From Elusimicrobia bacterium GWB2_63_16 (lineage in GTDB: Bacteria > Elusimicrobiota > Elusimicrobia > Elusimicrobiales > UBA9959), in NCBI GenBank assembly GCA_001799715.1, contig MGTZ01000036.1, forward strand, positions 54,226 to 118,225: a stretch of DNA of 64,000 nt, written 5' to 3'. Below, piece after piece: positions 31,001 to 51,920 of the stretch (position 1 is its first letter; each line of letters opens with the position of its first letter). Position numbers and translations under genes: made by a program. The notes under the pieces were generated by a model. The model did not search any database. It was not told where the DNA came from and saw nothing but the letters and a program-made list of their open reading frames with translations.

Positions 31001-34000
31001 ACGGCAGCGCGACGGTGAACAATATCGCCCTGCGCACGGCCGGCGCCAGGGTCATAACGGCGGCCGACCAGAGCGGCGCGCTGGGCAGCACGCCCAGCGG
31101 CGGCTTCCTGCTGGTCCCGAACACGCCCACCAAGCTCCGCGCGATGATAGAGGGGGAGGACCGGGAGCCCGGGTCCACCGGAGACGGCCGCTCAGGCTCG
31201 CCCGAAGGCCAGCAGGCCGGCTTCCCGTTCACGGTCACGGTGGACATCACCGACTCTTTCTGGAACCTGACGCCCGGCGCCAGCCAGGAGATACGCCTCA
31301 TCTCCGACGACCCCGCGGCCACGATCGTGCCCGCCTCGCAGATCATTACCGGCTCCGCCACGTTCACCGTCACTCCGATCCGGGCCGGCAGCACCGTGCT
31401 GCGCGCCGAGGCCGTATCGCCCGGCGTGCCGGGCAGCCCGCTCGGGACCGCGGTTTTCGACATAGCCACTACCGTCAGCGTGGCGCCCGGCGTGCCCAAG
31501 CGCCTGCTGCTGCTGCTGCCGGGAGAGTCCTTCAGCCAGGGCTCGGCCACCGGCAAGTCCGGAAACGCCGAGGATACCACGGCGGGCAGCACCGACTTCA
31601 AGGTGCGCGTCGGCGTGGTGGACGACTATTTCAACCTGGTGTCGGGCAGACCCGTCGACGTCAAAGTGAACACTCCTACGGACGCCTACGCCCCCGCGGT
31701 CAGCACGGTGGCGGTGGATACGGCTTTCGGCTATACCGACCTGATCTACTTCCAGATGCGCAGGGCCGCCACTCATTACCTGACCGCGTCCGACTTCGGA
31801 GCTTCCGGCCTCTCGGACGATCCCAAGTCCTCCACGTTCACCGTGCATCCCGCGGCCCCGCTGGGCCTGCAGATAGTGCTGCCCGGCGAGATCGCGCTGC
31901 CGGGCTCCGGCGCCTACCCCAACGGCGGCAAGGCGCTCACCGCCTCCACGCAGACGGCCGGCACCGGTTTCAGCGCCACCGTGAACCTGGTGGACCAGTA
32001 TATGAACGTCTACCAGGGGCTCTCGGTGGGCCCGACCGTCTACCTCGTCACCTCGGACCTCTATGACATAGACCCCGACAGCGCCCCGCTCAATTACGGC
32101 ACGCTGCAGGTGCCGCTTAACCTGGTCACGCGGGCCAGTGCCGCCAGCGTAAAGGCCTACCCCGTCTCCGGGGCCGACAACCTGGTCTGCAGCGGCAACC
32201 CCGGCGGGCTCTGCCGCAACGACGACGCGGCGGCGAAGGACTCCTTCAAGGTCTACGCCTCCACCGCGGTGCGGCTGGAGGTCGTGCTCCCCGGCCAGAC
32301 GCTGGTGGAGGGCAAGTGCGCGGTCAGTCCGCCGTGCAAGAGCTCTGCCCTGACCTGGCCCGGCCGCAGCGGCCCTCCTGCGGAGCATACTATCGGCGCC
32401 GGCGCGCTGTTCGCCAACGTTTACCTGACCGACATGTTCTATAACAGGGCCACGGACGCGGTAGGAGCGGCCCAGAACACGAACCCGGTGGCCGTGATGC
32501 CGGAGGTCCGGCTGACGATGCCCAGCGACTCGAAAACCACCGCGCCCGCGCCGCAGACCCTTTCCAACGGCAGCTCGGTCTTCTCGCTCGACCCGCGCAC
32601 CTCCATCAGCACGTACACCGTGCTGGCGGCCACCACGACGGCTTCCGCGGCCGGTTACAGCGCCGGCATCTCCACGCTGGCCGTCAACCCCGGTCCGGCG
32701 GCCAGTATGGCGATGACCGTGGCCTCCACCTACGCGGTGGCCGGCGTGCCGTTCTCCGCCCAGCTCTACGTACTGGACGCCTACGGCAACGTCTGCTCCA
32801 CCGGCCCCAACGTCTACCTGGGCACGGCCACCTTCGTCGTCACCGACCAGGTCAGCCTGCTGCAGGACCCGGCGCTCGCCGCGCCGACCACGGCCTATTA
32901 CTCCTACGACTTCGGCGTCAAGACGCTGACCAACTGGTTCACGCTGAAGAAGGCCGGCCCCGACACTGTTTCCGCGCACGACTCGCTGCTGCCGGCCATC
33001 GCCGTGACCCCGCCGCTGGAAATGTACGTGCTGCCCGGCCTGCCCAGCGTGTACCGCGTTTCTCCCACCAGCGACCTGGAGGTTCCCGCCGGTACGCTGC
33101 TGTCCCCCGGCCTGCAGGAGCTCACCGCGCAGCTGACCGACGCTTTCGACAACAACATCTCCTCGGCCGGCCTGCCGGCGCAGGTCATGATGGGCGAGGT
33201 GTACGGCTCCACCGGCACGCTGGTCTATTATGACGGCGCCGCCTGGCTGGATGTCGGCGTTTCCACGCTGGTCTACACGGATAGCCAGGGCCGCGTGGGC
33301 GTCTCCACGGAGATCGCCTATCAGGTCTCCAGCAAGGCCGGGGACTGGGCCAGGGTCTGGATCGGCACCACCACGCTGAATCCCGCTTCTTACGCCACCT
33401 ACGCGTCGGCCAGGCAGAACATCAGCGGCCGGCTGACCACCACCGGCGGCACGCCCACCAAGCTGGTCTATATTTCCAGCCAGGCGGAGGCGCTGGTCGG
33501 TATACAGGAAATGGCGGCGGTGGGCGCCGCGTTCACGGTGGAGCGCCGCGACGACTTCGACAACATCACCAAGCAGGGCGAGACCGGCGTCTACCTGAGC
33601 ATCCCGTCCGAGCAGCAGACGGTGCATACCGGCCTGGGCCGCACGCTGGCCACTTTCGGCAACATCGGCGACTACGGTTTCCGCGACGAGTTCGACACGC
33701 AGTTCGTCAACGCGGTCATCATCCCGCCCAATAAGACGTCCGCCAAGTTCCGCTACCACGACAGGACCTCGTCCTATTCCGGCACCTCGCCGGCCGCCAA
33801 TACCTACGAGGACGGCAGGCCCGGCTACTGGCAGCTGGAGGCCCGCTCGGGCACGATGCAGCCGGCCATACACCAGCTGCGCGTCAACCCGGCGCAGGTC
33901 GCCCGCGTGGCCTTCGGCAACGACCCCAGGTCCATGACGGCCGGCAAGCTGACCGACAGGTTCGGCGAACTGCAGGTCTTCAGGGCCGAGCTGCGCGACA

Positions 34001-37000
34001 TGTTCGACAACCCGTCCGTCTCCACCGCCGCGGTGCAGGTGCTGCTATCCACGTTCACCCGCCAGCCCTCGCTGATCAACGATTCTGTCCATTTCGCGTC
34101 GGCCAGCGCTCTGTCCGGCGCCTTCCCGCCGGTCTTCGCCTCCACGGTATCCGTGGTCGATATCCCGCTGGACGGCTACACGGCCACGTTCTACTACCTC
34201 GACACCACCGCTTCTTCGGTCTACGCTTCCTCGATGACGCCGGTACGCCCCATAATAAAAGTTGAGGTGCCGGAGCGCGAGGGCTGGTCCTCCTCCACGC
34301 AGTCCGTCACCGTCATGCCGGACCTGACCTACCGCGTGAACGTAAGCTCCAACGCCGGGCAGACCCTCACGGCCGGCGCGACGTCGCAGGTCTTCCTGCT
34401 GTCCGTGGAGGACCATTACGGTAACCCGACCCCCGTGGCCAGCGGCCAGGAGGACGCCGTCGGGGCGGGCATAACCTTCTCGCTGATCTCCAACTCGGCC
34501 GGCCAGGTGAAGTTCTCCTCGCCGGACCCCGGCGCCTTCGCGGCGCAGCCAGGTTCGGCCAAGATGCAGCTAGGGGAGGCCACCACCAGCTTCTACCTTA
34601 TCGACACGCTGGTTTCCGCCCCGACGCACCAGCTCTCCGTGAACACGGTGCAGGCTAAGGGCTGGCTGCCGGCCGTCTCGTCCTACACCGTGACGCCGGC
34701 CGCCCCCGACCACGTGGTCTTCCATACCCCGCCCCGCCGTCTGGTGGCCGGCACCACCGTGCAGTACGCCAATTACACCATCGGCCTCACCACCCCGACG
34801 CCGGTCACCGTGGCCCTGAAGGACGCGTACGATAATAACACGACCACCAATACGCAGGTCACCGTGCGCCTGTCGGCGGCGCGCAACAGCACCTACGGCG
34901 GCATAGACCCGTCCACCACCACCGTTTCCTCCAACCCGAGCTGGAAGCTGCTGAGCACGAACCCGCTGGACCTGGACATCCCGGCCGGCTACTCGTTCGC
35001 CAACTTCTACGTCTGGGACACCATAGTCGGCACCTCGGTGGTGAACGCCAACTCTTACATCGCCGCGGACAATATCACCCTGCCGCAGGTTTCCCAGGAC
35101 GTCTATATCACGCCCAGCACCGCGGCCTATTTCTCGCTGCACCACGGCTACACGCTGGCCAGCCCGCTGCGCGTGCAGACCCCCGGCTATGTTACGCTGC
35201 GGGCCAGGGACCAGTACGGCAACGTGGCGGCCGGCGACCCCGTAAACGGCAAGTATTATACGGGCAAGATCAACATGGTGACGAACTCCAAGGGTTCGGC
35301 CGACCTGCGCGACTATATAACCAATACGACCGACTACACCTTTGTGCCCGCCGACCGCGGCGAGCGCACGCTGATGATCTACGACACGATGGTGGAGACG
35401 CTGCGCGTCAACGTCACCGACTACAGCCTGCCGGGAGTCTTCGGCCACACCGCCGACAGTTCGCGCGGCCTGCCGCAGGGCTCCAGCGAGGACCTGGTCC
35501 TCTCCGGCCTGGTGATCACCCCGCGGGATTTCGCCCCCGAGGACCCGCTGCCCGTCTCGAAGACCTCCATCGGCATCAACAAGACCGCCATCTACCAGGG
35601 CGACGGCGTCATCGCCGACATCCCGGCCCCGGTGCCGATGCTGCGCCTCACCGTGCAGGCCCAGCCGGCCGGTTCGCCGCCGGCCTACCTGAAGTCGATG
35701 CAGCTCAAGAGCTCCGGCACGCTGGCCTATTCGGATATCATAGAGATCGGCATGTACGCCGACAACCCGTCCGCCGGCCAGCTGGGCCTCTTCGACGGCG
35801 AGACCGTGCTGGGCGGCGCGCCCGTGGACATCTTCATGTCGAGCGGCACCTGGGACTCCGGGCTGATGGGCTGGAAGTTCGAAGACCTGAACACCAAGGT
35901 CTCCACCGCCGCGATAGTTTCCGACGTGGCCAGGAACTTCTTCTTCGCGGTGCGCATGTCCACCGTGGCCGCCACGCCGCGCAGTTTCGCCATCGCGCTG
36001 GATAACCCGTCGTTCGTGGTGCTCAGCTCCACGTTCGTCGGCGTCGCGTACAACAATTTCCCGATAGTCACCGCCACCTCCCCGGTGCGGAACCAGCCCG
36101 CCACGATCATGGTGCAGGGCGAGGATATCGGCGCCTGGTGGCAGGCGGGCGTGGACGCCGGGCAGTACGATTACGTGGAACAGGGCACCGAGCGCGCCGG
36201 CTTCCTGGCGATCCGCGCCTGGACGGATAACTTCATCGGCACGATCAAGTCCTTCAAGATCATTAAGACCGGCACCGGTTCCGGGCAGGACCTCAAGAGC
36301 GTGCGCCTGTTCCTCGACGACGGCGACGGCGAATTCGGCCAGGCCATCGATAAAGAGGTCACGGACCCGGCCAACCCGCCCACATTCAACCCTGCCGACC
36401 CCGGCACCTACGTGCTGCCGCTCTATAACCCGGGGGTGGACGGAGCCATATCGATAAGCACCCGCACTTACTTCGTGGTCTACGAGTTCCAGCCCGACGC
36501 GGTCCCCAACATGACGCACGGCGCGCGCCTGGAGAACTCAGGCATCAGCCTGATAGACGGCGTCGTCGGGGCCTTCACGCCGGTGGCTTCTTCCACCGTG
36601 CCGCTGTACGCCACCGCGGACCTGGTCTACCTGGTGGACGTCAACAGGTCGGCCCCGAACGACTTCAGCAAGCCTTCTTTCGTCACGCAGAACGACATCA
36701 ATAAGCCGGTGGCCCGCCTGACGATGAAGATCACCGATTCGATCGGTTCCGCGGTCTGGCGCGGCCTGAAGCTGGACCGCTGGGTTACCGCCGCCGAGAA
36801 TGGCAATACCGAGGCCTGGAACATGGTCACCGACGTAAAGCGCATCAGCCTCTGGTATGATTCCACCGGAGACGGCCTGCTGCAGACCACCACCACGGTC
36901 AAGGATACCGAGGTGGTGCTGCTGGGCGCCAACACCCGCAACTTCCCGTACGACACCCTGAAGGCGCCGCTGGTCTCCACCGACACGGTCATCCGCGTCA

Positions 37001-40000
37001 CCGACATACAGAAATTCTTCCCGTCCGACAGCCCGTTCCCGATGGCGCCCGGCCGCCTGATCATCAACGACGCCCAGCCCGATCCCGCGCAGAAGGAAGT
37101 CGTCTACTACGGTTCCGTGGACGTGCTGACCAACTCCTTCGGCAATCTGACGCGCGGTGCCGAGGGCACGGCCCAGGTGGAGTGGTCCAGCGGCACCGTG
37201 ATCTCGGGCCAGGCCGTGCTGCCGCTGATCGGCGACGGCAGCAGCCTCGACGGCCAGGTGATCTTCTCCGAGTCCCGCGACTACTTCATCACCTACGATA
37301 TAGACCCGCTGGCCAACGTGTCCAACTTCTCGTACCTCGGCATGGCCATACGCAGCACGGACTATTTCCTGATCGACGCGCCCAAGATGATGAGCCAGTC
37401 CAACGTGGGCGTGACCGCCCCCGGCAAGACGCTGTCGCTGGTGGGCCGAGTCAATGAGTACGCCGACTCCGTCATCGTGACCGCCTCTGACACGTTCACC
37501 GGCGACAACCTGCAGCAGCAGGCCGTCAACCAGCCGATACTCGACTTCACGATGTCCACCGACGTGTCCGACGCGATGTGGCGCTGGATGCTGGTCTACG
37601 CCACCGGCACGGCGATCAAGGACGGCACGGCCGTGCCCGACGTCTCGGCAGTGAAGATCTGGTACGACAAGGACAATAACGGCTTCCTGGGCGGCATAGA
37701 CGAGCAGGTGGGCACCGGCACCTTCGGCAACACTATCTACGGCCCGCTGGTGGCCAGGGTTTCGCTCTCCCAGGAGCAGCGCATCGTGACCGCGCAGAAG
37801 GCCGCGATCGACAATATCTCCAGGCGCTACTTCCTGACCTACGACATCAGGGACTCGGCCATGCCCAACGACGCGCTGGGCAACCCGCGCTACCTGGGCG
37901 CTTATCTCAAGGCGGAGTCCTTCCCGCAGGGCAGCCCGAGCTTCGACGACGCGTCCAAGAACGCGCTGTCGCTGCCCAACAAGTTCCTCCCCGACGACTC
38001 CAACCTGACCTACGTCTCCAGGGTCCGCGAGATCATCTCCTCGCCCAGCACCGTTACGGTGAATACCGAGCCGGTCTTCGCCTTCGAGGGCGGCGCCTCT
38101 TTCCCGAACCTGCGCCTGACGCAGGACGTGGTCAGCCCCGGACCGATGGACGCCGCCTGGCTGGTGACCTCCACCGCCGGCATCCCGTCTTCGGGTTACG
38201 CGATGGTGGACAACGAGATCGTGCAGTACGCGGGCACCGCGGCCGGCGCGCTGACGATGGTCACGCGCGGCGTCTTCAGCACGCCGGTGGTGGCCCACTC
38301 CTCGGGCGCCGCGCTGGGCGGCATGGTGCGGCAGGGCTGGGGCAACTACCCGTTCATGAAGATGACGCTGCTGACGGCCGGCTACGGCGTGCGCTGGCGC
38401 GGCTTCAGGCTCTCGCGCAGGCAGCCTTCCGGTCTGAACGGTTACGACTCCGACGTCAGCATGGTCAAGGTCTGGAAGGACAACGGCAACGGCATCTTCG
38501 ACCGCGACCCCGTGACCGGCATGAACACTTCCGACGTGCTGGTGGGCAGCGGCCGCTTCGGCGAGGCCGACCCGGTGGGCAAAGCCACCATTTACGTGGC
38601 CGACCCGGCCCTGGCCAACCAGGACTACGTCGTGGTCAGCGCCACCCCGACCATAGTCTTCGTCACGATGGACGTGGACCGCGCCTCCAGGTTCTCGCAC
38701 GAGCTGCTTACGCCGCAGAACGACGTGCTGGGCGTGGAGGTGCCGTTCGAGAGCAACTTCCTCTTCGGGCCCGACAACTCCGGCCACGTCGCCGATTTCC
38801 TTAATCCCGCCGCCAGCGCCATGACCGCGGTGATGCCCACGCTCAACGACGTCACCCTGGAACCCGAGGATATCTCGCCCGTGGCGGCCGTGCAGAACGA
38901 CAAGAACGTCGGCCTGCTGGCCCTGCACATGAAGGTCGACAAGACCTCGGCGCTGCTCGAGGCTATCAAGCTGCGCCGCCTGGGCACCGCCGCGGACTCC
39001 GACATAGACCTCATCAAGGTCTGGAGGGACTCCAACGACAACTGCATCCTGGACTCCGTGGACGTGGCCTCCACCTCGGCCGGCCTGTATCCGAACCTGA
39101 TGAGCTACGGCAACGAAGCCTACTCTTCCAGCACCATCAATATTGCGCTCAAGACGCCTATCGTCATCACGACTACGCCGTCCTGCGCCTTCATCAGCTA
39201 CGACCTCTCGCAGTTCGCCATCGTGGGCTCCACCACGGCGCTGAACCTGGGCGGCATCGCGGACCTGACTATCGGCATCCCCAACACGGTCACGATGACC
39301 ACGTGGCCGGTGAATACGATGCCGATCAAGATAGAGGAAATCCCGTCCGACGTCAAGCTGGGCGCCAACGACATGGCGGCCGCGCTGCTGCAGTCCGGCG
39401 GCGTGGGCCAGGCCCAGGTGAGCGTGCCGATGCTGCGCTTCAACCTGACCACCGAGGCCGGCAACGCCCGCTGGAGCGCGGTCAAGGTGCAGCGCACCGG
39501 CGCCTCCAACGACCCGAACGCGCCTTTCGGCAAGAACACGGACGTGAAGTTCGTGTCCATCTACCAGGACTCCAACCAGAACGACACGCTGGACGTCAAC
39601 GACATCAATATTTCCGAGGCCCGCACCAAGCTGGCGGTGCCGCTCTCGTCCACGGTCACGGTGCCGTTCCAGCTGGTGCTGGACTCGACCGCCGGCTTCC
39701 CCGTCTCCGGGCGCCTCTACGTCAGCGACGCCGAACTGATGACCTACAGCGGCAGCGGCCTCTCCGCCTCCGGCAAGCCGTACCTGAACGTCACCTACCG
39801 GGGCGAGCGCCTCGGCGACTTTATCACGCCGCTGATCAATCACCCCGCCGGCGCCCGGGTGCGCAAGGTGGACCTGTTCGACCAGGATAACGCCCTGAAC
39901 ACGCAGATCACGGTCAGTCTGGCCCAGACGCAGACGCTCAGCCCGCTGGCCCAGACCTTCTTCGCCGTCTACGATATCGGCGAAATGGCCGTGAAGGCCA

Positions 40001-42546: not shown

Positions 42547-44163
42547 ATGAAACGCAATCTTTGTATTGCCTTTGCCCCCTTGGCTATATGGGCTGAAACG
42601 AAGCGTGTTATACGCTTCAGCCTCGCCATGGGGTTTTTTATTGCCCTTTCGGCGGCGACTGCCCTGGCCCAGGGCGGCGGCCAGCCCGGCGCCTTCATGA
42701 GCTACGGCGCCGGCGCGCGCGGCCTGGGCATGGGCGGCGCCTTCTTCGCGGTGGCCGACGACGCCTCCGCCTCCTACTGGAACCCCGCGGCCCTCACCCT
42801 GCTCGAGCGCAAAGAGTTCACCGCCATGCAGGCGACCCTGTTCGAGCAGACCACGCTTAACTTCTTCACCTACGCGCACCCTACCAGCACCAAGGGCACC
42901 TGGGCCGTCAGCATGACCCAGCTGCAGTCCACCGGCTTCGAGAAGATCTCCATCACCGCCAACCCCGGCGGCGACGAGATCATAGACATCAAGACGCTCG
43001 GCACTTTCGACAGCACCGAGCGCGCGCTGGCCTTCTCCTGGGGCCGTGAGGTTTCCGACAAGCTGGCCTTCGGCATCATGGCCAAGAACATCTCCCGCAC
43101 GCTGGACACCTCCGTGGACTCCTTCAACGCCATCGACATAGCGATGCTAAACAAGTTCTCCAAGACCTACCGCGCCGCGATCGGCATCCAGAACGTCTTC
43201 TCCATGGCCTCGGGCGATACCGAGGACAAGCTGCCCCTGACCCTGAAGTTCGGCCAGGCCCTGAGCCTTTTCAAGGGCAGCCTGCTGTTCGGCTTCGACC
43301 TGAACAAGCCCCAGGGTTCCTCCATGAACTGGCGCTTCGGCGGCGAGTACTGGCTGATGTACTGGGCCGCGCTGCGCTTCGGCGTGCAGGGCGCCCCCGA
43401 GATCCAGGAGGCCGATTTCGGCCTCGGCATCAAGTACAAGAACCTCGGTTTCGACGTGGCCCAGGGCGTGCACGCGCTGGGTTCCACCACCCGCTTCTCC
43501 GTGACGCTGCGCATGGGCCAGAGCAACAAGGCCAAGCACGACCGCGAGGTCCGCGAGCTGGTCCGCCAGGCCCTGCAGTACTTCAAGTCCGGCTACTTCA
43601 GCCGCGCCATGGAGAAGCTGCGCGCCGCCATGGACGCCGACCCCGGCAACCCCGAGATCCGCCGCATGGTCACCCGCCTGCAGGGCGCCATAGACTACGT
43701 GCCGGACGCCACGGGCGGCGACGAGGTGCCTACCCTGACCCGCCGCGGCATCATCTCCTACGTGGACGGCAAGGACCTGAAGGCCTCCGTGAACGTGCTG
43801 CGCCACGCCTTCAACAAGGACCCGAAGAACGACCGCCTGCTCTCCCTGCTGAACATGGTGGAGCGCGAGGCCGGCGTGAGCGAACTGACCCGCAAGCCCG
43901 AGGGTCCCGAGATCTTCACTTACATCGACCAGCGCACCTACGACGCCCGCCAGGCCATCTACGACGGCAAGTACGACCTGGCCATGAAGCGCGCCCAGGA
44001 CATCCTGGACCTCGAGCCCAACAACGAGACCGCCCTCGAGATCATGGGCAGCTCGTTCTACCTGATGGACCAGAAGGAGAAGGCCAAGGTCATCTGGGAA
44101 AAGGTCGTGGAGATCAACCCCAACAACACGATGGTCAAGAACTTCCTGCGCCAGGTGAAGTAA
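42547..44163 (+). CDS. PorV/PorQ-family outer-membrane beta-barrel with C-terminal TPR repeats (start codon uncertain: 42547 or downstream)
   Basis: GAGARGLGMGGAFFAVADDASASYWNPAAL motif of the PorV/FadL-like family, alternating beta-strands, then helical TPR-like repeats (ALQYFKSGYFSRAMEKLRAAMDADPGN...). Confidence 0.85.
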   Translation: MKRNLCIAFAPLAIWAETKRVIRFSLAMGFFIALSAATALAQGGGQPGAFMSYGAGARGLGMGGAFFAVADDASASYWNPAALTLLERKEFTAMQATLFEQTTLNFFTYAHPTSTKGTWAVSMTQLQSTGFEKISITANPGGDEIIDIKTLGTFDSTERALAFSWGREVSDKLAFGIMAKNISRTLDTSVDSFNAIDIAMLNKFSKTYRAAIGIQNVFSMASGDTEDKLPLTLKFGQALSLFKGSLLFGFDLNKPQGSSMNWRFGGEYWLMYWAALRFGVQGAPEIQEADFGLGIKYKNLGFDVAQGVHALGSTTRFSVTLRMGQSNKAKHDREVRELVRQALQYFKSGYFSRAMEKLRAAMDADPGNPEIRRMVTRLQGAIDYVPDATGGDEVPTLTRRGIISYVDGKDLKASVNVLRHAFNKDPKNDRLLSLLNMVEREAGVSELTRKPEGPEIFTYIDQRTYDARQAIYDGKYDLAMKRAQDILDLEPNNETALEIMGSSFYLMDQKEKAKVIWEKVVEINPNNTMVKNFLRQVK

Positions 44164-44182
44164 GGCGCAGGAGAGGGGAGAG

Positions 44183-44314
44183 GGCCGGTGAGGGTATGCC
44201 TTCTACGGGTACGCTCGGCCACACCGTGGCCTCGCTCTGTCACTCGTGCTCGGCGCTACGCAAGCCTCGCACTCGCGAGGCCCCTCCGAAGGCATACCCT
44301 CCCCAGCCTGCCGT
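44183..44314 (+). repeat. Structured intergenic repeat family, copy 1 (~130 bp)
   Basis: Closing IR GAGGGTATGCCTTC/GAAGGCATACCCTC; core CGGGTACGCTCGGCCACACCGTGGCCTCGCTC shared with 46580-46712 and 62951-63083. Confidence 0.9.
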
Positions 44315-44348
44315 TCTCCTGCAATTAGGCCGTTTCATGGTGGAAACT

Positions 44349-44532
44349 GGCGGAAACCATATGGGCAGGGTTAGCAAAACCCTGTCGGGGTGGAGCGAAG
44401 CGACACTTTCCCCGCCCCGAGCTTGCATAGCGCGAGGGCCGAGACGGGGAGTGGCGAGCACGGTGTGCGGGTGGAGCGCAGCGACACCGCAGTGACGGCG
44501 GTTTTGCGTTCCTGCCCATATGGTAAGCCGCC
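44349..44532. repeat. Second palindromic MITE/REP-like element
   Basis: Terminal IR ACCATATGGGCAGG (44356-44369)/CCTGCCCATATGGT (44511-44524); internal direct repeat GTGGAGCG(A/C)AGCGACAC at 44390 and 44471. Confidence 0.6.
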
Positions 44533-44630
44533 AAAGCGTCAGGCACGGCAAGCGGGTAAGGCGTCAGGTTTTAATAAGTGAATGTTTTTGAAACTATTCT
44601 GTAATACGTTAAAGATAGAATAATTGTGAT

Positions 44631-46574
44631 ATGAAAAGGCTTTTCGCCTCCCTCGCGCTCGTTATGAGCCTGTGGGCGCCCCGGGTATCTGCCCAGAGCG
44701 CCGCGCTCGATAATCCCATGATGGAGACCTCGCTGATGCAGAAGCAGGACTCCATGCGCCGCGAGGCGGAGACCAAGGTCAAGAAGGAGATCCTCGACCC
44801 CATCCTCGGGGCCGACAAGTCCTTCGTTTTCGCCGACGTCGAGCTGGAGGTCATCTCCAAGAAGGCCGAGCAGAGCAAGGAAGGCCTGGGCGTGATGCAG
44901 AAGTACAAGGAGAAGGGGGGCAGCGACGAGGCGGCCGATACCGACTTCATCCTTCCCGGCATCCCTAAACCCAAGAGCGTGCTGGGCGGCGAGAACAAGC
45001 GCCCCGAGGCGGCCCAGGGCCAGCAGGCCCAGCAGGCCAAAGGCGTGCAGGAGATACGCTACGGCCTCGAGACCGAGATCACCCGCTTTCAGCTGACCGT
45101 CATCCACGACGAACAGCTCTCCCCGGCTTCCATAGCCCTGGCCCGCGAGCGCATAGACGATTTCCTGGTGCCCTACAAGATCCGCAAGACCGGCGCGCCC
45201 ACCGTGGTCTTCAAGCCCACCAAGTTCAAGGCCGGCAATCCCCTGGACGACCTTAAGAAGCCGTCCGTGTACCTGCCCCTGCTTTACGCGCTGCTGTTCC
45301 TGCTGCTGCTGCTGTTCCTGTTCGGCCCGCTGTGGGGCTTCTTCCGCAAGTACATCAAGGCGCTGATGGCCAAGCCCGGCGCCGAGGTGAACATAGAGGA
45401 CAAGCGCGAAGAGGGCGGGGGAGGGAGCGGCGAGGACGAGGGAAAGCAGGAGACCGAGGGGCACCAGAGCATAGATATGAACTTCCTTCAGAAGGAGGAG
45501 GAGAAGAAGGAAGACGAGGACGACCTTATGAAGAAATTCGAGCCTTTCACCTATTTGAACGAGGAGAACCTCAAGCGGCTGATTTATCTGTTCCTGCTCC
45601 GCAAAGAGGACCCGTGGGTCATAGCGGTGGTGCTGAGCTACCTCAAGCCCGACCTGTCCCGCCAGGCCCTGAGCATGCTGCCGGTGGAGATGCAGAGCCG
45701 CGTGGCGCTGGAGGCCCTGACCGTGCGCCAGGCCACCCGCGAGCAGATAGAGGCCATCGACAAGGATATCCGCGAGAACGTGGATTTCGTGATGGGCGGC
45801 ATAGAGCGCCTGATAAAGATGCTCGACGACTCCGACCCGGCCACCCGCAAGAACATCATAGAGTACCTCAAGACGCAGAAGCCCGACGTCTACGCCAAGG
45901 TGCGCCAGATCGTGCTGATGTTCGAGGATATCGTAAATTTCGCCGACCGCGACATGCAGTCCATCATCCGCAACCTCAACAACGAGGACGTGGCGAAGGC
46001 TCTGGCCAAGGCCGACCCGGCCATCGTCAACAAGTTCTTCACGAACATGTCGCAGGGCGCCGTGAACTCCGTCAAGGAGATCATGGAGTACTCCGGCGAG
46101 ATCAGCCTGGCCCAGTCGGACGAGGCGCAGATGAAGATCCTGGACGCCATCAAGACGCTGGAGTCCGAGGGCAAGATCGCCTCGCGCGGCGGCAATTCGC
46201 AGGAAGTCTATATGATAGAGGGGGGGGAGATGTCCTCCGGCGACGAGCGCCGCAAGAAATTCGAGAGCCTGTCCGCTTCCGCCCCGGCCGCCGCCGGCCC
46301 CACGCCCGAGCAGCTGGAGCAGGCCAGCCAGTACGCCGCCGCCGGCGCCAATATGTACAACCAGGGCCAGGTGCAGGAGAGCCTGCAGTACCTGGAATAT
46401 GCCTCCTCGCTGAACCCCGGCGACGCCTCCACCTGGCAGTACCTGGGCGCGGCCTATTACGGCCTGCAGCGGGTGGACGAGGCGGTGGCCGCCTACGAGA
46501 AGTACGCGTCCCTGTCCGGCGACCCGGCCGCCTCCGAATGGCTGGCCGGCTTCAAGGCGAGCGTAGGCAGATAA
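44631..46574 (+). CDS. Signal peptide - FliF-like ring domain - TM - FliG middle/C-terminal domains - TPR fusion protein
   Basis: FliG motifs EDPWVIAVVLSYL (EHPQ-like), GGIERLIKML, LMFEDIV (MFxF-like), FFTNMS, EAQMKILDAIKTLESEGKI. FliF RBM3-like ILDPILG..FVFADVEL and ITRFQLTVIHD; one TM at ~45267-45345; C-terminal TPRs. Confidence 0.85.
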   Translation: MKRLFASLALVMSLWAPRVSAQSAALDNPMMETSLMQKQDSMRREAETKVKKEILDPILGADKSFVFADVELEVISKKAEQSKEGLGVMQKYKEKGGSDEAADTDFILPGIPKPKSVLGGENKRPEAAQGQQAQQAKGVQEIRYGLETEITRFQLTVIHDEQLSPASIALARERIDDFLVPYKIRKTGAPTVVFKPTKFKAGNPLDDLKKPSVYLPLLYALLFLLLLLFLFGPLWGFFRKYIKALMAKPGAEVNIEDKREEGGGGSGEDEGKQETEGHQSIDMNFLQKEEEKKEDEDDLMKKFEPFTYLNEENLKRLIYLFLLRKEDPWVIAVVLSYLKPDLSRQALSMLPVEMQSRVALEALTVRQATREQIEAIDKDIRENVDFVMGGIERLIKMLDDSDPATRKNIIEYLKTQKPDVYAKVRQIVLMFEDIVNFADRDMQSIIRNLNNEDVAKALAKADPAIVNKFFTNMSQGAVNSVKEIMEYSGEISLAQSDEAQMKILDAIKTLESEGKIASRGGNSQEVYMIEGGEMSSGDERRKKFESLSASAPAAAGPTPEQLEQASQYAAAGANMYNQGQVQESLQYLEYASSLNPGDASTWQYLGAAYYGLQRVDEAVAAYEKYASLSGDPAASEWLAGFKASVGR

Positions 46575-46579
46575 CTGGT

Positions 46580-46712
46580 TGTGCCCGGCATGGGGCTGCC
46601 CTCTCCGGGTACGCTCGGCCACACCGTGGCCTCGCTCTTTCACTCAGGCTCGGCGCTTACGCAAGCCTCGCCTTCGCGAGGCCCCTGCGAGGGCAACCCC
46701 CTGCCGGACACA
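46580..46712 (+). repeat. Structured intergenic repeat family, copy 2
   Basis: Same core as copy 1; closing stem GGGGCTGCCCTC/GAGGGCAACCCC with compensatory changes. Confidence 0.88.
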
Positions 46713-46842
46713 GCGGATAAAGAGCACCCTTGCCGGTCCCCCATGGGGGATATAAAGTTGTTAATAATCTTGTAACGAAAGTGAAACCGCGTTTTTTTAG
46801 AATATAGTGGCAGCAAGACGGACTGAGCTTAACCTTAAATTT

Positions 46843-49239
46843 ATGTCAGACGAGAAGAAAATACCTAAGATGCCCCCGCTTCCCCCGGGGATGCTCAAGC
46901 CTGGTATGCCGCCGGCCCCTCCTGCCGGCAGGCCTCCTCTGCCGTCCATGCCTGGCATGCCGCAGGCCGGTTTCCCCTCCATGCCCCAGGGCTTCGGCCA
47001 GCCGGCCGCCGCCCCGCAGCCCGCCGCCAAGGACGACGCCGAAGAGCGCCGCCTGCAGGAAGAGAAGGACAAGCTGGAGCGCAAGATCGCGGACATGGAG
47101 AAGCTGCTGTCGGCCGAGAAAGAGAAGGCGCTGCTCGCCACGCTGAAGAACCAGCAGGACGAGGCTCTCTCCTCCCGCGTGGAGTCTTCGCTTAAAGATA
47201 TACAGGACAAGATGCGCCGCGACCGCCGCGACCACGAGGTCGAGGAAGAGCGCCTCACGCTGAAATCCAAGATCAAAGAGATGGAGACCCGCCTCGCGCA
47301 GGAGCGCGAGACCTGGATGACCACGCTCAAGAACCAGATGTCCGAGCGCGAGGTGCAGGGCCGCGACGTGGAAGGCCACTTCATCTACAGGCTCCAGGAG
47401 ATGGAGCGCCGCTGGCTGGACGAAAAGGCCCAGTGGCAGAAAGAGATCACCTCCCGCGAGGAGACCATCCGCTCGCTCAAGTCCGCCGCCGAGAAGCTGC
47501 GCGACACCGAGGACGAGCTGCGCAAGATCTCCCTGGAAAAGACCATGTCCGACCGCGAGGTCTCCCGCCTGCGCGACGACGTGGCCCGCGCCGAGCGCGA
47601 GAAGGCCTCGGTCGAGACCTATATCAAGATGATCCCCGAGAAGGAGCGCGAGATCGCGGACCTCAGGAGCGAGAACATCTCGCTGCGCGGCCGCGAGGAG
47701 AAGGCGCGCCTCGAGGAGAAGCACAACGCCGAAAAACAGGCTTTCGAACTGGAGAAGATGCAGAAGGAGATAGGCCGTCTGCAGGCCGAGATCGGCGCCA
47801 TCTCCGACCGCAAGAACGAGGAGAAGAACGAGGCCCTGCGCAAGCAGGCCGAGCGCTACGACGCCTCCCTCCTGGAGAAGGAGAAGGCCCTGGCCGACGT
47901 GAACGGCGAGAAGGTGCGCGCCATCTCCGAACTGGTCAAGATCAAAGGTTTCGTGTCCCGGGTGCAGGCCATCAACGCCGTGCTCGACAAGGAACGCGGC
48001 CAGCTGAAGCTCGAGAAGATGCAGCTCGCCCAGAACATGGCCGCGCAGCTCGAGGAGATACGCCGCCAGAAGCAGGAACTGGACACCATCAAGGCCGCCC
48101 ACCAGAGCGAGCTGGAAGCCCAGGCCACCGGCTACAAGGCCGAGATAGCCAGGGTAAAGAACGGCTACGGGGCCGAACTGGCCGCCAGGCACGCCGAGGA
48201 ACTGGCCGAGGCCTCCCGCAGGAACCAGGAGGAACTGTCCAGGCTGGCCGCCGTGCACCAGGCCGAACTGGCCAACGCCGCCTCGTCCCACCAGGCCGAG
48301 CTGTCCAGGCTGGAATCGATACGCCGCGAGGAGGCCTCCAGGGCCGCCGCGGCCCACCAGGCCGAACTTACCAAGCTCGCCGACGAACGCCAGGTGGAAG
48401 TATCCAAAATTTCGGCCGACGCCCAGGCCGAGGTCGCCAGGATTTCCGCCGAGCGCCAGGCCGAGCTGGACGCCAAGGTCTCCCAGCTGCGCATGCAGTA
48501 CGAGTCCTCCTCCGAAGAGGAGAAGACCGCCGTGCGCAAGCAGCTCGAGGCGGCCCACTCCGCCCAGCTGGCTACCGCCCGCGCCGAAGCCTCCGCCGCG
48601 ATGGATTCGCTGGTCAGGCTGGAGGCCGAGAACCGCCGTCTCGCCGCCGAGAGCGCCGTGTTCGAGAAGACGATCGCCGCCAGGACCAAGGATTTCGAGG
48701 ACAGGCTGGTCCGCGCCGAGGCCGAGGCCAAGCGCCGCGACGAGCAGGCCTCCCGCGCCGAGGCCCAGCTCTCCGAGTCCCTGGCCCGCGCCGCCGAAGC
48801 CGCCAAGGCCGCCCAGGCCGTGGAGACGGAACGCCAGCGCCTGTCGGCCGAGTACGCCGCCCTGCGCGAGAAATATTCCGCGATAGAGTCCCGCCGCGCC
48901 GCCGAGGAGGCCGAACTGGCCCGCCTGACGGACAGCTTCAAGGCCCAGGCCGAAAACCTCAGGCTGGAGAGCGAGAACCGCACCCGCTTCGAATCCGAGC
49001 TGCTCTTCCTCAAACAGAAGGTGCAGCAGATGGAACTGCAGGCCCAGGAGACCGCCTCGCTGCTCGACGACGAGCGCAACGCCGCCGCCGCGCAGGCGCA
49101 GGCCGCCGCCGACCAGGCCGCCGCCGACGCCGCCCGCCTGGCGGAGGCCTCCGCCGAGCTGGAGAAATACCGCTCGCTCGAGGCTTCCTTCGCGGAGCGC
49201 CTGAAGTGGGCCATCAAGGGTAAAAAACAGGCGGAGTGA
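46843..49239 (+). CDS. Long coiled-coil protein with N-terminal proline-rich segment
   Basis: ATG 46843 (MSDEKKIPKMPPLPPGM...), preferred over GTG 46807; ~740 aa of E/K/R/A/L-rich helical repeats; no TM. Confidence 0.85.
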   Translation: MSDEKKIPKMPPLPPGMLKPGMPPAPPAGRPPLPSMPGMPQAGFPSMPQGFGQPAAAPQPAAKDDAEERRLQEEKDKLERKIADMEKLLSAEKEKALLATLKNQQDEALSSRVESSLKDIQDKMRRDRRDHEVEEERLTLKSKIKEMETRLAQERETWMTTLKNQMSEREVQGRDVEGHFIYRLQEMERRWLDEKAQWQKEITSREETIRSLKSAAEKLRDTEDELRKISLEKTMSDREVSRLRDDVARAEREKASVETYIKMIPEKEREIADLRSENISLRGREEKARLEEKHNAEKQAFELEKMQKEIGRLQAEIGAISDRKNEEKNEALRKQAERYDASLLEKEKALADVNGEKVRAISELVKIKGFVSRVQAINAVLDKERGQLKLEKMQLAQNMAAQLEEIRRQKQELDTIKAAHQSELEAQATGYKAEIARVKNGYGAELAARHAEELAEASRRNQEELSRLAAVHQAELANAASSHQAELSRLESIRREEASRAAAAHQAELTKLADERQVEVSKISADAQAEVARISAERQAELDAKVSQLRMQYESSSEEEKTAVRKQLEAAHSAQLATARAEASAAMDSLVRLEAENRRLAAESAVFEKTIAARTKDFEDRLVRAEAEAKRRDEQASRAEAQLSESLARAAEAAKAAQAVETERQRLSAEYAALREKYSAIESRRAAEEAELARLTDSFKAQAENLRLESENRTRFESELLFLKQKVQQMELQAQETASLLDDERNAAAAQAQAAADQAAADAARLAEASAELEKYRSLEASFAERLKWAIKGKKQAE

Positions 49240-49324
49240 ACGCGCCCCCGGAGGGGAAGCAGGGCGGGGGGAACCAGGGTTGCCGCCGCCCGCGCTTATT
49301 GGCAATAAAGTATAATTTAAGACG

Positions 49325-49549
49325 ATGATCAAGCTCGAAAAACTCAACGGGACCATGGTGGTGGTGAACGCCGAACTCATCGAAACGATAGAGGCCGGCC
49401 CCGACACCGTGCTGAACCTGGCCACCGGCAACCGGTACCTGGTCAGGAACCCGGTGGACGAAGTGATCGCGCTGATCGTGGAGTACAAGAAGAAGGTCTA
49501 CGCCGAGCGGCGCTGCGTCAACCCCGTCGAGGGCTTCGAGAAAAAGTAA
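49325..49549 (+). CDS. flbD: Flagellar FlbD family protein
   Basis: MIKLEKLNG...VVNAELIETIEAGPDTVLNLATG.RYLV....DEV; directly upstream of motA as in flbD-motA-motB operons. Confidence 0.9.
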   Translation: MIKLEKLNGTMVVVNAELIETIEAGPDTVLNLATGNRYLVRNPVDEVIALIVEYKKKVYAERRCVNPVEGFEKK

Positions 49550-49564
49550 GGAGACCCTGCTTTC

Positions 49565-50347
49565 ATGGATATAGGTACATTAAGCGGCATCGTGGTGTTC
49601 ATGGGCTTCGTGCTGGGCTCGGTCTACCTGCAGGAGGGTATGGCCGGCTTCAAGCCCTTCATGAACATCGAGGCCTTCCTCATCGTCATGGGCGGCACGT
49701 TCTGCGCGCTGCTGGTCAATTTCCCGCTCTCCGCCGTGATCGGCTCAGGCAAGGTGCTCAAGAAGGTGCTGACCACCAAAGGCGAGGACACCTCCAAGCT
49801 GGTCACCACCTTCGTCTCGCTGTCGCAGAAAGCCAAGAAAGAGGGTTTCCTGGCGCTGCAGGGCGACGTGCAGGCCATCGACAACGACTTCCTCAAGCGC
49901 GGCGTGCAGCTGGTCATCGACGGCGCCGACCACGAGTTCATCCGCAACATGCTCGAGACCGAGATCGACTTCATCCGCGAGCGCCACAAGAACGGCCGCG
50001 AGATCTTCAACGCCCTGGGCACCTACGCCCCGGCCTTCGGCATCATCGGCACGGTGCTCGGCATGATCCTGATGCTTTCCTCCATCGACGACGTGGCCCA
50101 GGTGCCGCGCCGCATGGCCCTCGCCCTGGCGGCCGCCTTCTACGGCCTAGCGTCCGGCTACTGGCTGTTCATGCCCATGGGCGGCAAGCTCAAGAGCCGC
50201 TCCGACGAGGAGCTGTTCGTCAAAGAGATCATCATCCGCGGCGTGCTGCTGCTGCAGAGCGGCGCCACGCCCAGCGTAGTGGAGGCCAACCTGAAGGCCT
50301 ACCTCGACCCCGCCGCCCGCGCGGCCATCAAGAAAGAAGGCGCGTAA
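49565..50347 (+). CDS. motA: Flagellar-type stator protein MotA/PomA
   Basis: AFLIVMGGT, KAKKEGFLAL, FLKRGVQLVIDG, YAPAFGIIGTVLGMI, FYG...PMGGKL, GVLLLQSGATP; SD AAGGAG. Confidence 0.95.
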   Translation: MDIGTLSGIVVFMGFVLGSVYLQEGMAGFKPFMNIEAFLIVMGGTFCALLVNFPLSAVIGSGKVLKKVLTTKGEDTSKLVTTFVSLSQKAKKEGFLALQGDVQAIDNDFLKRGVQLVIDGADHEFIRNMLETEIDFIRERHKNGREIFNALGTYAPAFGIIGTVLGMILMLSSIDDVAQVPRRMALALAAAFYGLASGYWLFMPMGGKLKSRSDEELFVKEIIIRGVLLLQSGATPSVVEANLKAYLDPAARAAIKKEGA

Positions 50348-50356
50348 GGCTCTCCT

Positions 50357-51160
50357 ATGGCCCTCAGAGTAAAAGGCATGATCCCGGAGGACGACAGGCG
50401 CGTGGCGCCCGTCGGCGAACCCGCGCCCCCGTGGATGGTCAACTACGCCGACCTGATGACCGAGCTGGTCTGCTTCTTCGTCATCCTGTACGCCCTGTCC
50501 GCCGCCCTCAACAAGGACATGCAGAAGGCCCAGCAGGAAGTGCAGGAGATGATCAAAGAGGGCAAGATGGCCGGCCAGGTGCAGATAGACAAGGAAGGCA
50601 TGCGCATCACGCTCGAAGAGCAGAGCCAGATGGCCTTCTTCGAGAGCGGCAAGGCCGACCTGACCGACTCTATGCGCGAGCAGATGGGCAAGCTCTCCCC
50701 GGTGCTGCTCAAGCTGGCAGAGAAGCACGACATCGTGGTGGAAGGCCACACCGACAATATCCCGATCTATACCAAACAGTTCGCCTCCAACTGGGAGCTG
50801 TCCACCGCGCGCGCCACCAGCGTGGTGAAATCCATGCTGGAAGACAAGTTCGCCCCGAAGCGGCTGTCGGCCGTGGGCTACGGGGAATACCATCCCATAG
50901 TGCCCAACGACAGTCCGCCGAACCGCAAGAAGAACCGCCGCGTGGTATTCTTCATCAAGAACAATCCTTATCCCGACCCGACCGGCCCCCCGGGGCCTGA
51001 CGGCAAGCCCCTCCCGGTTGCGCCGGAAGGCGGAGCCCCGGCCGTGCCCGAGCAGGCGCCGGCCGCGCCGGAAGGCGCCGCCGAACTGCCGGCCGGAGAG
51101 GTTCCCGCCCCGGAGACGCCCGCCCCGGCGGGAGACGCGCCCGCGGAAGCCGGGGAATAA
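50357..51160 (+). CDS. motB: Flagellar-type stator protein MotB/PomB with OmpA-like peptidoglycan-binding domain
   Basis: WMVNYADLMT TM motif with the conserved Asp; VEGHTDN, NWELSTARA, GYGEYHP, NRRV; Pro/Ala tail. Confidence 0.95.
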   Translation: MALRVKGMIPEDDRRVAPVGEPAPPWMVNYADLMTELVCFFVILYALSAALNKDMQKAQQEVQEMIKEGKMAGQVQIDKEGMRITLEEQSQMAFFESGKADLTDSMREQMGKLSPVLLKLAEKHDIVVEGHTDNIPIYTKQFASNWELSTARATSVVKSMLEDKFAPKRLSAVGYGEYHPIVPNDSPPNRKKNRRVVFFIKNNPYPDPTGPPGPDGKPLPVAPEGGAPAVPEQAPAAPEGAAELPAGEVPAPETPAPAGDAPAEAGE

Positions 51161-51176
51161 CAGGAAGGCTGAATTT

Positions 51177-51920
51177 ATGAAGAGAGAACTGATCCGGATA
51201 CTGGCCGTTACCCTGCTGGCCGCGCCGCTGGCCGGCTGCTTTGGCGGCATGAAGCACCTGAAAGTGGTGGACTACACCGACACGCGCGTGGGCGACCTGT
51301 CGCTGACCAAGAAGGTCACCGGCAAGCGCGAGTTCCTGTTCTTCTCCACCACCAAGATGAGCGTCTTCCTGGACGGCAACATACAGGGCGTCATCACCGA
51401 TTACCAGGGCAATCCCATCGAGGGCGTCACCGTGAAGGTCATGCCCGACACCGGCAAACAGGGCGCCGGCGGCGGGGACGGCGGCGATACCTTCGCGCTG
51501 GAAGAGAACGCCGGCGCGGCCATAAACCTTTCTTTCGCCCCCGGCATTACGGATACGATGGGGCTTTTTAAAATACACTTTTCCCTGCCTGTCACCGACA
51601 ACGAGGTGGACGTGCGCGGCAAGCTGGTCTACAATCCGGGCTGGGACCAGCAGCGCCTGAACCTGGGCAAGGCCTACGAGCCCCAGATGAAGGAATCCCC
51701 TTTCCGCCTCTACTACAACCTCGACAGCGGTTTCCTGGCCTTCGCCGAGGGCGTGCGCAAAGTTATCGTGCAGCCGGTGGGCGAAGGCAAGGGGCGCATG
51801 CAGAACCTGCCCGGCGCCCAGGCCCCGCAGCCGGCAGCCAAACCCGGAGGCGAGGCCGCCCCGGCCGGCGGCGCGCAGGCCGAGGAAGACCTCTTCAAAG
51901 GCTTCGACTTCGGCCAGTAA
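51177..51920 (+). CDS. Lipoprotein with carboxypeptidase-regulatory-like (Ig/transthyretin) segment
   Basis: ATG 51177; lipobox LAGC; IQGVITDYQGNPIEGVTVKV. Confidence 0.8.
   Translation: MKRELIRILAVTLLAAPLAGCFGGMKHLKVVDYTDTRVGDLSLTKKVTGKREFLFFSTTKMSVFLDGNIQGVITDYQGNPIEGVTVKVMPDTGKQGAGGGDGGDTFALEENAGAAINLSFAPGITDTMGLFKIHFSLPVTDNEVDVRGKLVYNPGWDQQRLNLGKAYEPQMKESPFRLYYNLDSGFLAFAEGVRKVIVQPVGEGKGRMQNLPGAQAPQPAAKPGGEAAPAGGAQAEEDLFKGFDFGQ

Follow-up and report, generated by a model that had tools for sequence, protein, structure and literature searches.

The window analysed here, a stretch of 64,000 nucleotides from Elusimicrobia bacterium GWB2_63_16 (contig MGTZ01000036.1, positions 54,226 to 118,225), contains a gene that joins FliF-like and FliG-like domains in one chain and, downstream of it, genes for a MotA/MotB stator. 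The host genome is an Elusimicrobiales metagenome-assembled genome of 2.87 Mb, 91% complete, in which profile searches found no FlhA, FliF (PF01514), flagellin or FliM/N. The best explanation, to which we give a probability of roughly two in three, is that these genes encode a rotor-stator module independent of flagella, widespread in Elusimicrobiota and working through a half-canonical contact. To our knowledge, torque generation by FliG and MotA is known only from flagella. An earlier note on this DNA had read altered charges in FliG and MotA as the sign either of a remodelled, co-evolved interface in a dedicated non-flagellar motor or of a relaxed torque function. A dedicated motor is supported by the lack of flagellar core genes, the five FliG_C/MotA modules of the genome, the fusion and the synteny.

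The "FliG" of the window is not a flagellar FliG; it is a natural FliF(RBM3/collar)-TM-FliG(MC)-TPR fusion (TM, transmembrane; TPR, tetratricopeptide repeat) of 647 aa, encoded at 44631..46574 on the + strand, as are the other window features given below, and is a putative rotor subunit. Pfam matched FliG_M (5e-11, residues 322-384; 45594-45782), FliG_C (1.7e-25, residues 412-516; 45864-46178), both of which were also placed by the alignments, and a C-terminal, predicted cytoplasmic TPR tail (TPR_2, TPR_19 and others; 46320..46565; pLDDT ~90); it did not find FliG_N, the domain by which flagellar FliG binds the C-terminus of FliF. The protein thus does not match the ~330-aa N-M-C layout of flagellar FliG, and it fails the FliG equivalog TIGR00207 (116 bits, cut-off 226.7). 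Residues 304-526 align to T. maritima FliG-MC (1lkv, 3ajc) at E 2e-31 in HMMER, and Foldseek matched the fusion to FliG MC with probability 1.0. The FliM-binding motif of FliG-M, EHPQ, reads EDPW (KEDPW) in the fusion, where K325, E326, P328 and W329 are invariant in 61 orthologues; a canonical Elusimicrobiota FliG (L076) retains EHPQ. The first 250 residues comprise a signal peptide (44631-44693), a periplasmic domain (residues ~35-197; 44733..45221) and one TM helix (~45261-45344), the periplasmic part being only ~190 aa. PF01514, which in FliF covers TM1 and the RBM1/RBM2 region with the export gate, matched nothing in the genome. In an AlphaFold2 (AF2) model this domain runs helix, long strand, disordered insert, long strand, helix, strand, and Foldseek matched it with probability 1.0 to the FliF S-ring/RBM3-collar in 7bk0_B, 8z4g_1, 6sd1_A and 7d84_A. 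The Pfam family YscJ_FliF_C (PF08345) was matched by the host's paralogue C45 above the cut-off of 23.8 bits (31.5 bits, 2.9e-7), by paralogue C28 below it (20.1 bits, 9.5e-4), and also by a distant relative, P0181. We conclude with moderate confidence, partly from the model, that the fusion contains a candidate RBM3/collar-type ring-building module.

Judged by its sequence, the stator is of the flagellar type (the FIT / TGI4 group of PMC12505986) and not of the ExbB/TolQ type. MotA (260 aa, 49565..50347; Pfam MotA_ExbB 1.8e-28) aligns over its full length to C. sporogenes MotA (5e-50), Vibrio PomA (6e-45) and B. subtilis MotA (2e-44). It scored 22.9 bits with the MotA_N-type family PF20560, under the cut-off of 27.3, and lay under all MotA/PomA/MotP equivalog cut-offs of NCBIfam (233.9/394, 215.4/340, 208.6/341 and 182.9/237). 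Its channel residues are intact, with YAPAFG and LFMPMG aligning to P173 and P222 of E. coli MotA. MotB (50357..51160) has a plug region (Pfam MotB_plug 5.4e-12), the channel Asp (D32 of E. coli MotB) in YADLMT and an OmpA-type peptidoglycan-binding domain (OmpA 5e-18). Canonical positions (P173, P222 and so on) are numbered after E. coli FliG and MotA; the sequences of T. maritima FliG, C. sporogenes MotA and Vibrio PomA came from search output. In a MotA tree the window clade (support 100/99) had as its sister the MotA from a flagellar contig of G121, an Elusimicrobiota genome with FlhA (95/89), and grouped with PomA and C. sporogenes MotA, apart from a second Elusimicrobiota clade. This placement among flagellar stators is indicative only, the deep branches being long.

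The module is neither unique in its genome nor rare in the phylum. The host encodes five FliG_C proteins. Near every one of them lie a MotA/MotB set and large proteins bearing a C-terminal domain (CTD), and at least four of the five loci have a PorV-like outer-membrane protein (OMP) with TPRs. At three of the paralogous modules MotA lies 19-26 nt from the fusion or overlaps its called open reading frame (ORF). The window cluster itself runs from a 12,759-aa surface protein through a PorV-family OMP, the fusion, an 810-aa coiled-coil protein, FlbD, MotA and MotB to a lipoprotein, and shows strict synteny across 29 Elusimicrobiota genomes of species level. We also surveyed 301 genomes sampled evenly over the phylum, from 97 genera. 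FliG_C was present in 107 genomes and 67 genera at 1-6 copies per genome, mostly in frames of 480-720 aa, whereas FlhA was confined to 6 genomes. In two flagellated genomes a canonical FliG of 335-346 aa occurs together with long fusions. Sixty additional loci from the phylum, 59 of them with a fusion, yielded a set of 61 fusions and 41 neighbouring MotAs. A PorV-like gene lay within 1.5 kb of the fusion at 44 of the 59 sampled loci, MotA and MotB within ~9 kb at 41, and 29 had an ORF of more than 1500 aa.

Two further observations concern the paralogous loci. At two of them (G000 C60:40982-42384 and C20:77006-78327; L042, L043), MotA is followed by two different MotB-like proteins in tandem, which suggests a heteromeric pair of B subunits. 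CheY-like response regulators and histidine kinases lie in or beside three paralogous modules (G000 C60:42416-42796, C45:57970-58980, C28:58969-60300 and 64491-67404; L042, L044, L045), and none in the window cluster. It is possible that these regulators control the switchless motors.

In the E. coli flagellar interface, MotA R90 and E98 pair with FliG D288-D289 and R281. We aligned the window proteins with HMMER to the sequences of solved structures and with MAFFT to E. coli FliG and MotA. The torque-helix segment NMSQGAVNSVKEIMEYSGEISL (residues 472-493; 46044..46109) aligned gap-free to T. maritima NMSKRAAALLKDELEYMGPVRL in HMMER and fell in the same columns against E. coli FliG in MAFFT, so that G476, E483, I484 and S492 stand at R281, D288, D289 and R297. 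The FliG changes are R281G, D288E, D289I and R297S; K264A also occurs, with a Lys one residue later. The modelled C domain of the fusion superposed on 1qc7_B and on 8ucs_H, the FliG-C chain of the C. sporogenes MotAB-FliG-C complex 8ucs, with TM-scores of 0.93-0.95 and a root-mean-square deviation (rmsd) of 0.9-1.2 Å in Foldseek. Because the superposition on solved FliG-C is this close, we take the FliG register to be correct. The cytoplasmic segment of MotA, AKKEGFLALQGD (49832..49867), reads KAKKEGFLALQGD and aligned gap-free in HMMER to C. sporogenes KARREGLLSLEDA and Vibrio PomA AARKGGFLALEE, with KAKKEGFLALQ opposite KARREGLLSLE and AARKGGFLALE. This places K91 at R90 and Q99 at E98, giving R90K and E98Q, the latter as a CAG codon at 49859-49861. 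All six substitutions and both positions (46044-46109 and 49832-49867) given in the earlier note were therefore confirmed. Two of the six, D288E and R90K, are conservative, and in the window both members of the E98-R281 pair are neutral.

Two of the rotor-side changes, Gly at 281 and Thr/Ser/Pro at 297, characterise the fusion family as a whole. Among the 61 orthologous fusion sequences, Gly at 281 and Glu at 288 are invariant, 289 is Ile (Ala in one), and 297 varies among Ser, Thr, Asn, Ala and others. We widened the sample to the nearest 150 representatives in a library of 1.84 billion proteins and compared 35 canonical-length FliGs with 75 long fusions. Position 264 is K/R in 34 of the 35 canonical proteins and in 58 of the 75 fusions. 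Position 281 is R in 33/35 canonical proteins, whereas the long fusions have G in 59/75 and R in 8/75. An acid at 288 is common to both (E/D in 34/35; E in 66/75), as it is at 289 (E/D in 32/35 and 59/75, respectively), while 297 is R/K in 30/35 canonical proteins and T/S in 50/75 fusions, with R/K in 8/75. The 61 phylum fusions gave a similar picture: G 46, N 8, S 2, K 2, R 2 and E 1 at position 281, no R/K at 297 (0/61), and an acid at 288 or 289 in 60/61. The 41 neighbouring MotAs have K (25) or R (13) at position 90, and Q (26) or E (15) at position 98. A quick tree of FliG M-C, with SH-aLRT support only, separated a "G-E-E-T" fusion clade (SH-aLRT 84) from a canonical "R-E-D/E-R/K" clade, and in it the G-E-I-S of the window is a derived state of its own family. 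At the level of sequence, the family signature is thus that two FliG arginines have been lost while the torque helix keeps its acidic end and MotA its basic residue, and a remodelled interface is supported. In the solved stator-FliG complex, the torque helix has charged residues at either end, and these grip two adjacent MotAs (PMC11302681); in the fusions only one end retains its charge.

Exceptions to the signature were also seen. A rare fusion subtype (L130, L131; G169:C48 and G119:C14) has R281 with D-D or D-E at 288-289, and its neighbouring MotA reads LEE, as in PomA, and lies on a very long branch in the MotA tree. A 328-aa fragment, P0124, grouped with the window orthologues in the quick tree and has Arg at 281 (R-E-T-T), which may be a reversion of the family Gly.

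We propose the following arrangement for the flagellum-independent motor. The fusion probably forms an inner-membrane ring through its RBM3/collar domain, as FliF does. The stator would be a MotA5B2-like unit anchored to peptidoglycan, made up of MotA and of MotB with its channel Asp and OmpA domain, plus FlbD. Driven by ions passing through MotAB, MotA would rotate against the torque helix of the FliG-like domain. Rotor and stator would meet through the retained pair of basic MotA-90 and acidic FliG-288(289), here K91-E483. R281 and R297, which normally face MotA E98, gave way early in the family to Gly and to Thr/Ser/Pro, and MotA-98, its FliG partner arginines being gone, would no longer be held as Glu and would drift between Glu and the isosteric Gln. 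The window has one of several independent E-to-Q changes, together with a family-level change of E289 to Ile. In place of the missing FliM/N switch, the response regulators and histidine kinases of the paralogous loci may provide control. The output would reach the envelope, most likely as movement or export of the giant CTD-bearing protein, in the role of an adhesin, through the PorV-like/TPR protein. In its most complete form the proposal is of an uncharacterised rotary machine, with a fusion ring and flagellar-type MotAB and without type III export apparatus, rod, hook, filament or switch, whose rotation is coupled through the periplasm to PorV-like/TPR OMPs and so moves or exports giant CTD proteins. 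This full version is tentative, and we consider it distinctly less probable than the rotor-stator module itself.

Several points weigh against the module as we interpret it. Domain make-up, conservation, the order of the changes, purifying selection, the absence of flagellar genes and gene linkage are shown by the data; ring formation, rotation, a physical MotA-FliG-like contact and the output are what we infer from them. With a mean pLDDT of 68, the AF2 model of the 647-aa fusion is only moderately good, and its periplasmic domain matches FliF modestly (E 3e-3 to 1e-2, TM-score 0.41-0.50). At each of the charge positions the host's other four paralogues diverge strongly, so that one rule for the interface does not cover them all. 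MotAB was absent within ~9 kb at 18 of the 59 related loci and is not adjacent to two distant fusions either, and the fusion may therefore have a role independent of the stator. Genuine flagellar stators with Q98, described below, indicate that Glu-98 can be dispensable even when R281 is present, which weakens the idea that loss of its partner relaxed E98. Finally, the link of the motor to an envelope output through the PorV-like and giant proteins is suggested through guilt by association only.

In the main rival explanation, MotAB energises a process at the outer membrane in the manner of TolQR/ExbBD/GldLM, such as export or anchoring of the giant CTD protein via the PorV-like protein, and the fusion is a static scaffold or regulator whose torque helix has been shaped by another partner. 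No gene accompanies the fusion more constantly than the PorV-like one, which is ahead of MotAB (44/59 against 41/59 loci), distant fusions lack an adjacent MotAB, and the TPR tail and coiled-coil partner suggest scaffolding. Known 5:2 motors also energise secretion, one example, given in PMC8986121, being the type IX secretion system (T9SS). Against this, the stator is a flagellar-type MotA and not of the ExbB/TolQ type, and MotA abuts the fusion gene in three paralogous modules. The FliG-C fold, the acidic end of the torque helix and the basic MotA-90 are moreover conserved family-wide, and RBM3/collar is a ring-building module. We therefore regard a static scaffold as rather unlikely, while giving it more weight than any of the other alternatives.

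A second alternative keeps the rotor and stator and makes their change reciprocal, with R281 and E98 lost as a compensating pair and replaced by a new specific contact. The window, with both partners neutral, has this appearance, and the earlier note had concluded that the two had changed together. Four fusions of the phylum sample are basic at 281 (R 2, K 2), and every one of them lies beside an E98 MotA, compared with 11/37 of the rest; these counts give a one-sided Fisher p of ~0.014. The four cases represent only two lineages, however. Sixteen of 24 orthologous MotAs have E at position 98 (GAG/GAA) and eight have Q (CAG), and well-supported branches of the tree force at least three switches between them (six by parsimony), while G281 is fixed in 61/61 orthologues. 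Basal members of the window stator clade have R90/E98 while their partner already has G281 and T297, and in the MotA tree R90K arises once and E98Q several times later. Five flagellated Elusimicrobiota (G062, G104, G064, G242 and G170; loci L047, L050, L053, L054 and L055, respectively) have Q at 98 in their flagellar-cluster MotA (SRREGLLALQK), which adjoins motB, lies ~6-14 kb from a canonical fliG and is on the same contig as flhA. Their FliG has R281, E/D at 288-289 and K at 297, so these R281-Q98 pairs cancel the trend; nor do the alignments show a replacement charged pair. Over the 41 neighbouring and five flagellar pairs, positions 281 and 98 had no consistent association once lineages were counted, and covariation was rejected. 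Of the substitutions in the window, E98Q also occurs in ordinary flagellated taxa, which by the earlier note's own standard refutes its reading at this position; for the FliG changes that is not the case. Because five flagellar-cluster MotAs carry Q98, E98 does not define membership of the flagellar stators in this phylum. We consider true reciprocal co-evolution unlikely. The data instead fit an order of events in which the FliG arginines were lost early and Glu-98 was later free to alternate with its isostere Gln, an account that is weakened by the flagellar Q98.

The genes could also be leftovers of a lost flagellum, in line with the relaxed torque function envisaged at the outset; the other flagellar genes are absent from the genome and several canonical charges are missing. 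The ratios of nonsynonymous to synonymous substitution rates (dN/dS) against six orthologues refute decay: they were 0.11-0.25 for the fusion and 0.10-0.25 for MotA, equal to those of the housekeeping gene MnmA (0.11-0.25), and 0.11-0.16 for FlbD and 0.16-0.28 for MotB. These values are if anything overestimates, because a strong bias in GC content at third codon positions (GC3) probably lowers dS. The frames are intact, gene order is strictly kept in the 29 syntenic genomes, and the family persists at 1-6 copies per genome in 67/97 genera, coexists with complete flagellar sets in two genomes and is invariant among orthologues at the substituted positions themselves. A pseudogene or decay origin was rejected on the dN/dS, intact frames and synteny, and is highly improbable. 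Least probable of all, to the point of being negligible, is an alignment artefact arising from the by-eye alignment of the earlier note: proper alignment did not bring back the canonical charges, HMMER being gap-free through the region in both proteins, profile alignments of ~200 sequences agreeing, the structures superposing at 0.9-1.2 Å and a canonical Synergistales FliG (L041) having K, R, E-D and R in the same columns, and the artefact was rejected.

The remaining genes of the window cluster are consistent in their arrangement among orthologous loci. The giant surface protein (12,759 aa; 4033..42312) ends in a putative FlgD-Ig/T9SS-type sorting-like domain, its last 399 aa having weak NCBIfam matches to FlgD-Ig, PorZ, PorU and T9SS CTD regions, and its C-terminal part is kept 5' of the PorV-like gene in orthologous loci. 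The GC3 of this ORF is very high (0.89), and the paralogous loci have counterparts of 6,022 aa and 2,863 aa. The PorV/PorQ-family outer-membrane barrel (42547..44163) passed the NCBIfam family PorV_fam NF033709 (113.5 bits, cut-off 90), was under the NCBIfam cut-offs of the PorV, PorQ and PorV2 equivalogs, and has a C-terminal extension with Pfam TPRs at residues 337-536. The 810-aa coiled-coil protein (46807..49239) has a Pro-rich N-terminus and matched no Pfam or NCBIfam family; its gene is kept between the fusion and flbD in orthologues, and distant fusions are also followed by a long protein without a family. FlbD (PF06289, 7.4e-24; 49325..49549), a small protein, is kept in orthologous loci, as is the last gene of the conserved cluster, which encodes a lipoprotein (51177..51920) with a LAGC lipobox and no known family in Pfam or NCBIfam.

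The two parts of the cluster differ in their relationships. Against the closest genomes (L012, L013), dS was 0.12-0.20 for the PorV-like gene, fusion and coiled-coil gene (42547-49239) and 0.36-0.67 for flbD, motA, motB and the lipoprotein gene (49325-51920). The window MotA is nearest to those of L014-L016 (95-96% aa identity), whose fusions are only 83-84% identical to that of the window. Because both dS and nearest relatives differ, the flbD-motA-motB-lipoprotein segment appears to have a history unlike that of the upstream genes, which suggests recombination within the cluster. A distant fusion on a metagenome contig from the European Nucleotide Archive (ENA) (L083, 13138-16145), 31% identical in the M-C domains, is followed by an 830-aa family-less protein and a Roadblock/LC7 (MglB-like) gene and preceded by CTD proteins and two PorV genes; MotAB was not found within 10 kb of it.

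The system has been noticed in the literature only in passing. A 2022 preprint (bioRxiv 10.1101/2022.07.08.499144) mentioned "numerous homologues" of motAB, flbD and fliG, of unclear role, in Elusimicrobiota without flagella. It covers the same genes and phylum through KEGG annotations only, without the fusion architecture, the linkage to PorV-like and giant proteins, the charge pattern or a phylogeny. A full-text literature search found the system described nowhere beyond this remark, and neither the 2025 paper that classifies MotAB nor the preprints on "loss of flagellar motility" and the "LBCA flagellum" treat it.

What makes the module of interest is that the same two folds are under purifying selection in flagellum-less bacteria, in about one third of the sampled genomes and two thirds of the genera. 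As a natural experiment, the family bears on which charges the interface requires: the pair MotA-90(+)/FliG-288(-) survives and the FliG arginines do not, while Glu-98 is exchangeable with Gln, even in the true flagellar stators of the phylum. The natural flagellar E98Q would by itself interest motor specialists. Two questions become testable: the requirements of a minimal FliG/MotAB motor, and what can be done by a rotor that has no filament. If the full machine is as proposed, it would represent a new type of engine for gliding or secretion. It would also be a minimal flagellar motor occurring in nature, with implications for how rotor and stator of the flagellum came to be combined. For annotation, the labels "flagellar motor switch protein FliG" and "MotA" in Elusimicrobiota do not mean flagella.

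Compared with the flagellar interface, the Elusimicrobiota module shares the FliG M and C folds, the MotA fold, the MotB plug, Asp and OmpA domain, and the predicted contact between basic 90 and acidic 288. It differs in that the fusion is without FliG-N and has its FliG domains joined to a FliF-like domain and a TPR tail, that R281, D289 and R297 are not conserved and EHPQ has become EDPW, and that the host genome is without FliM/FliN switch, export apparatus, rod, hook and filament. Engineered FliF-FliG fusions of Salmonella and Vibrio assemble MS-ring/S-ring structures, according to PMC6079021, PMC10941966 and PMC11481574. They resemble the Elusimicrobiota protein in having the FliF ring-building region, with its RBM3/collar-like fold, and FliG in one chain; the Elusimicrobiota fusion is natural, is without FliF TM1, RBM1, RBM2 and FliG-N, and has a cleavable-looking signal peptide, a TPR tail and up to six paralogues in non-flagellated cells.

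Two envelope systems offer further parallels. In the T9SS and gliding machinery of Bacteroidota (the GldLM/PorLM 5:2 motor, the PorV shuttle and CTD-bearing SprB), as here, MotAB-family motor genes go together with a PorV-family OMP and very large surface proteins with CTD-like ends. In place of GldL/GldM, however, the Elusimicrobiota motor has a flagellar-type MotAB and a FliG-like partner, and its PorV-like barrel has a TPR extension. A search for SprA_N gave no match in the host genome and was uninformative, as control genomes gave no match either. Elusimicrobiota lie outside the taxa usually credited with a T9SS. The Agl-Glt system of Myxococcus (TolQR-type AglRQS, coiled-coil AglZ, MglA/MglB) likewise combines a 5:2-family motor with a cytoplasmic protein that forms a long coiled coil; near one distant fusion locus there is also a Roadblock/LC7 (MglB-like) gene. 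Unlike Agl-Glt, the Elusimicrobiota module has a stator that appears to be of the flagellar and not the TolQ type, and it has a FliG-like partner.

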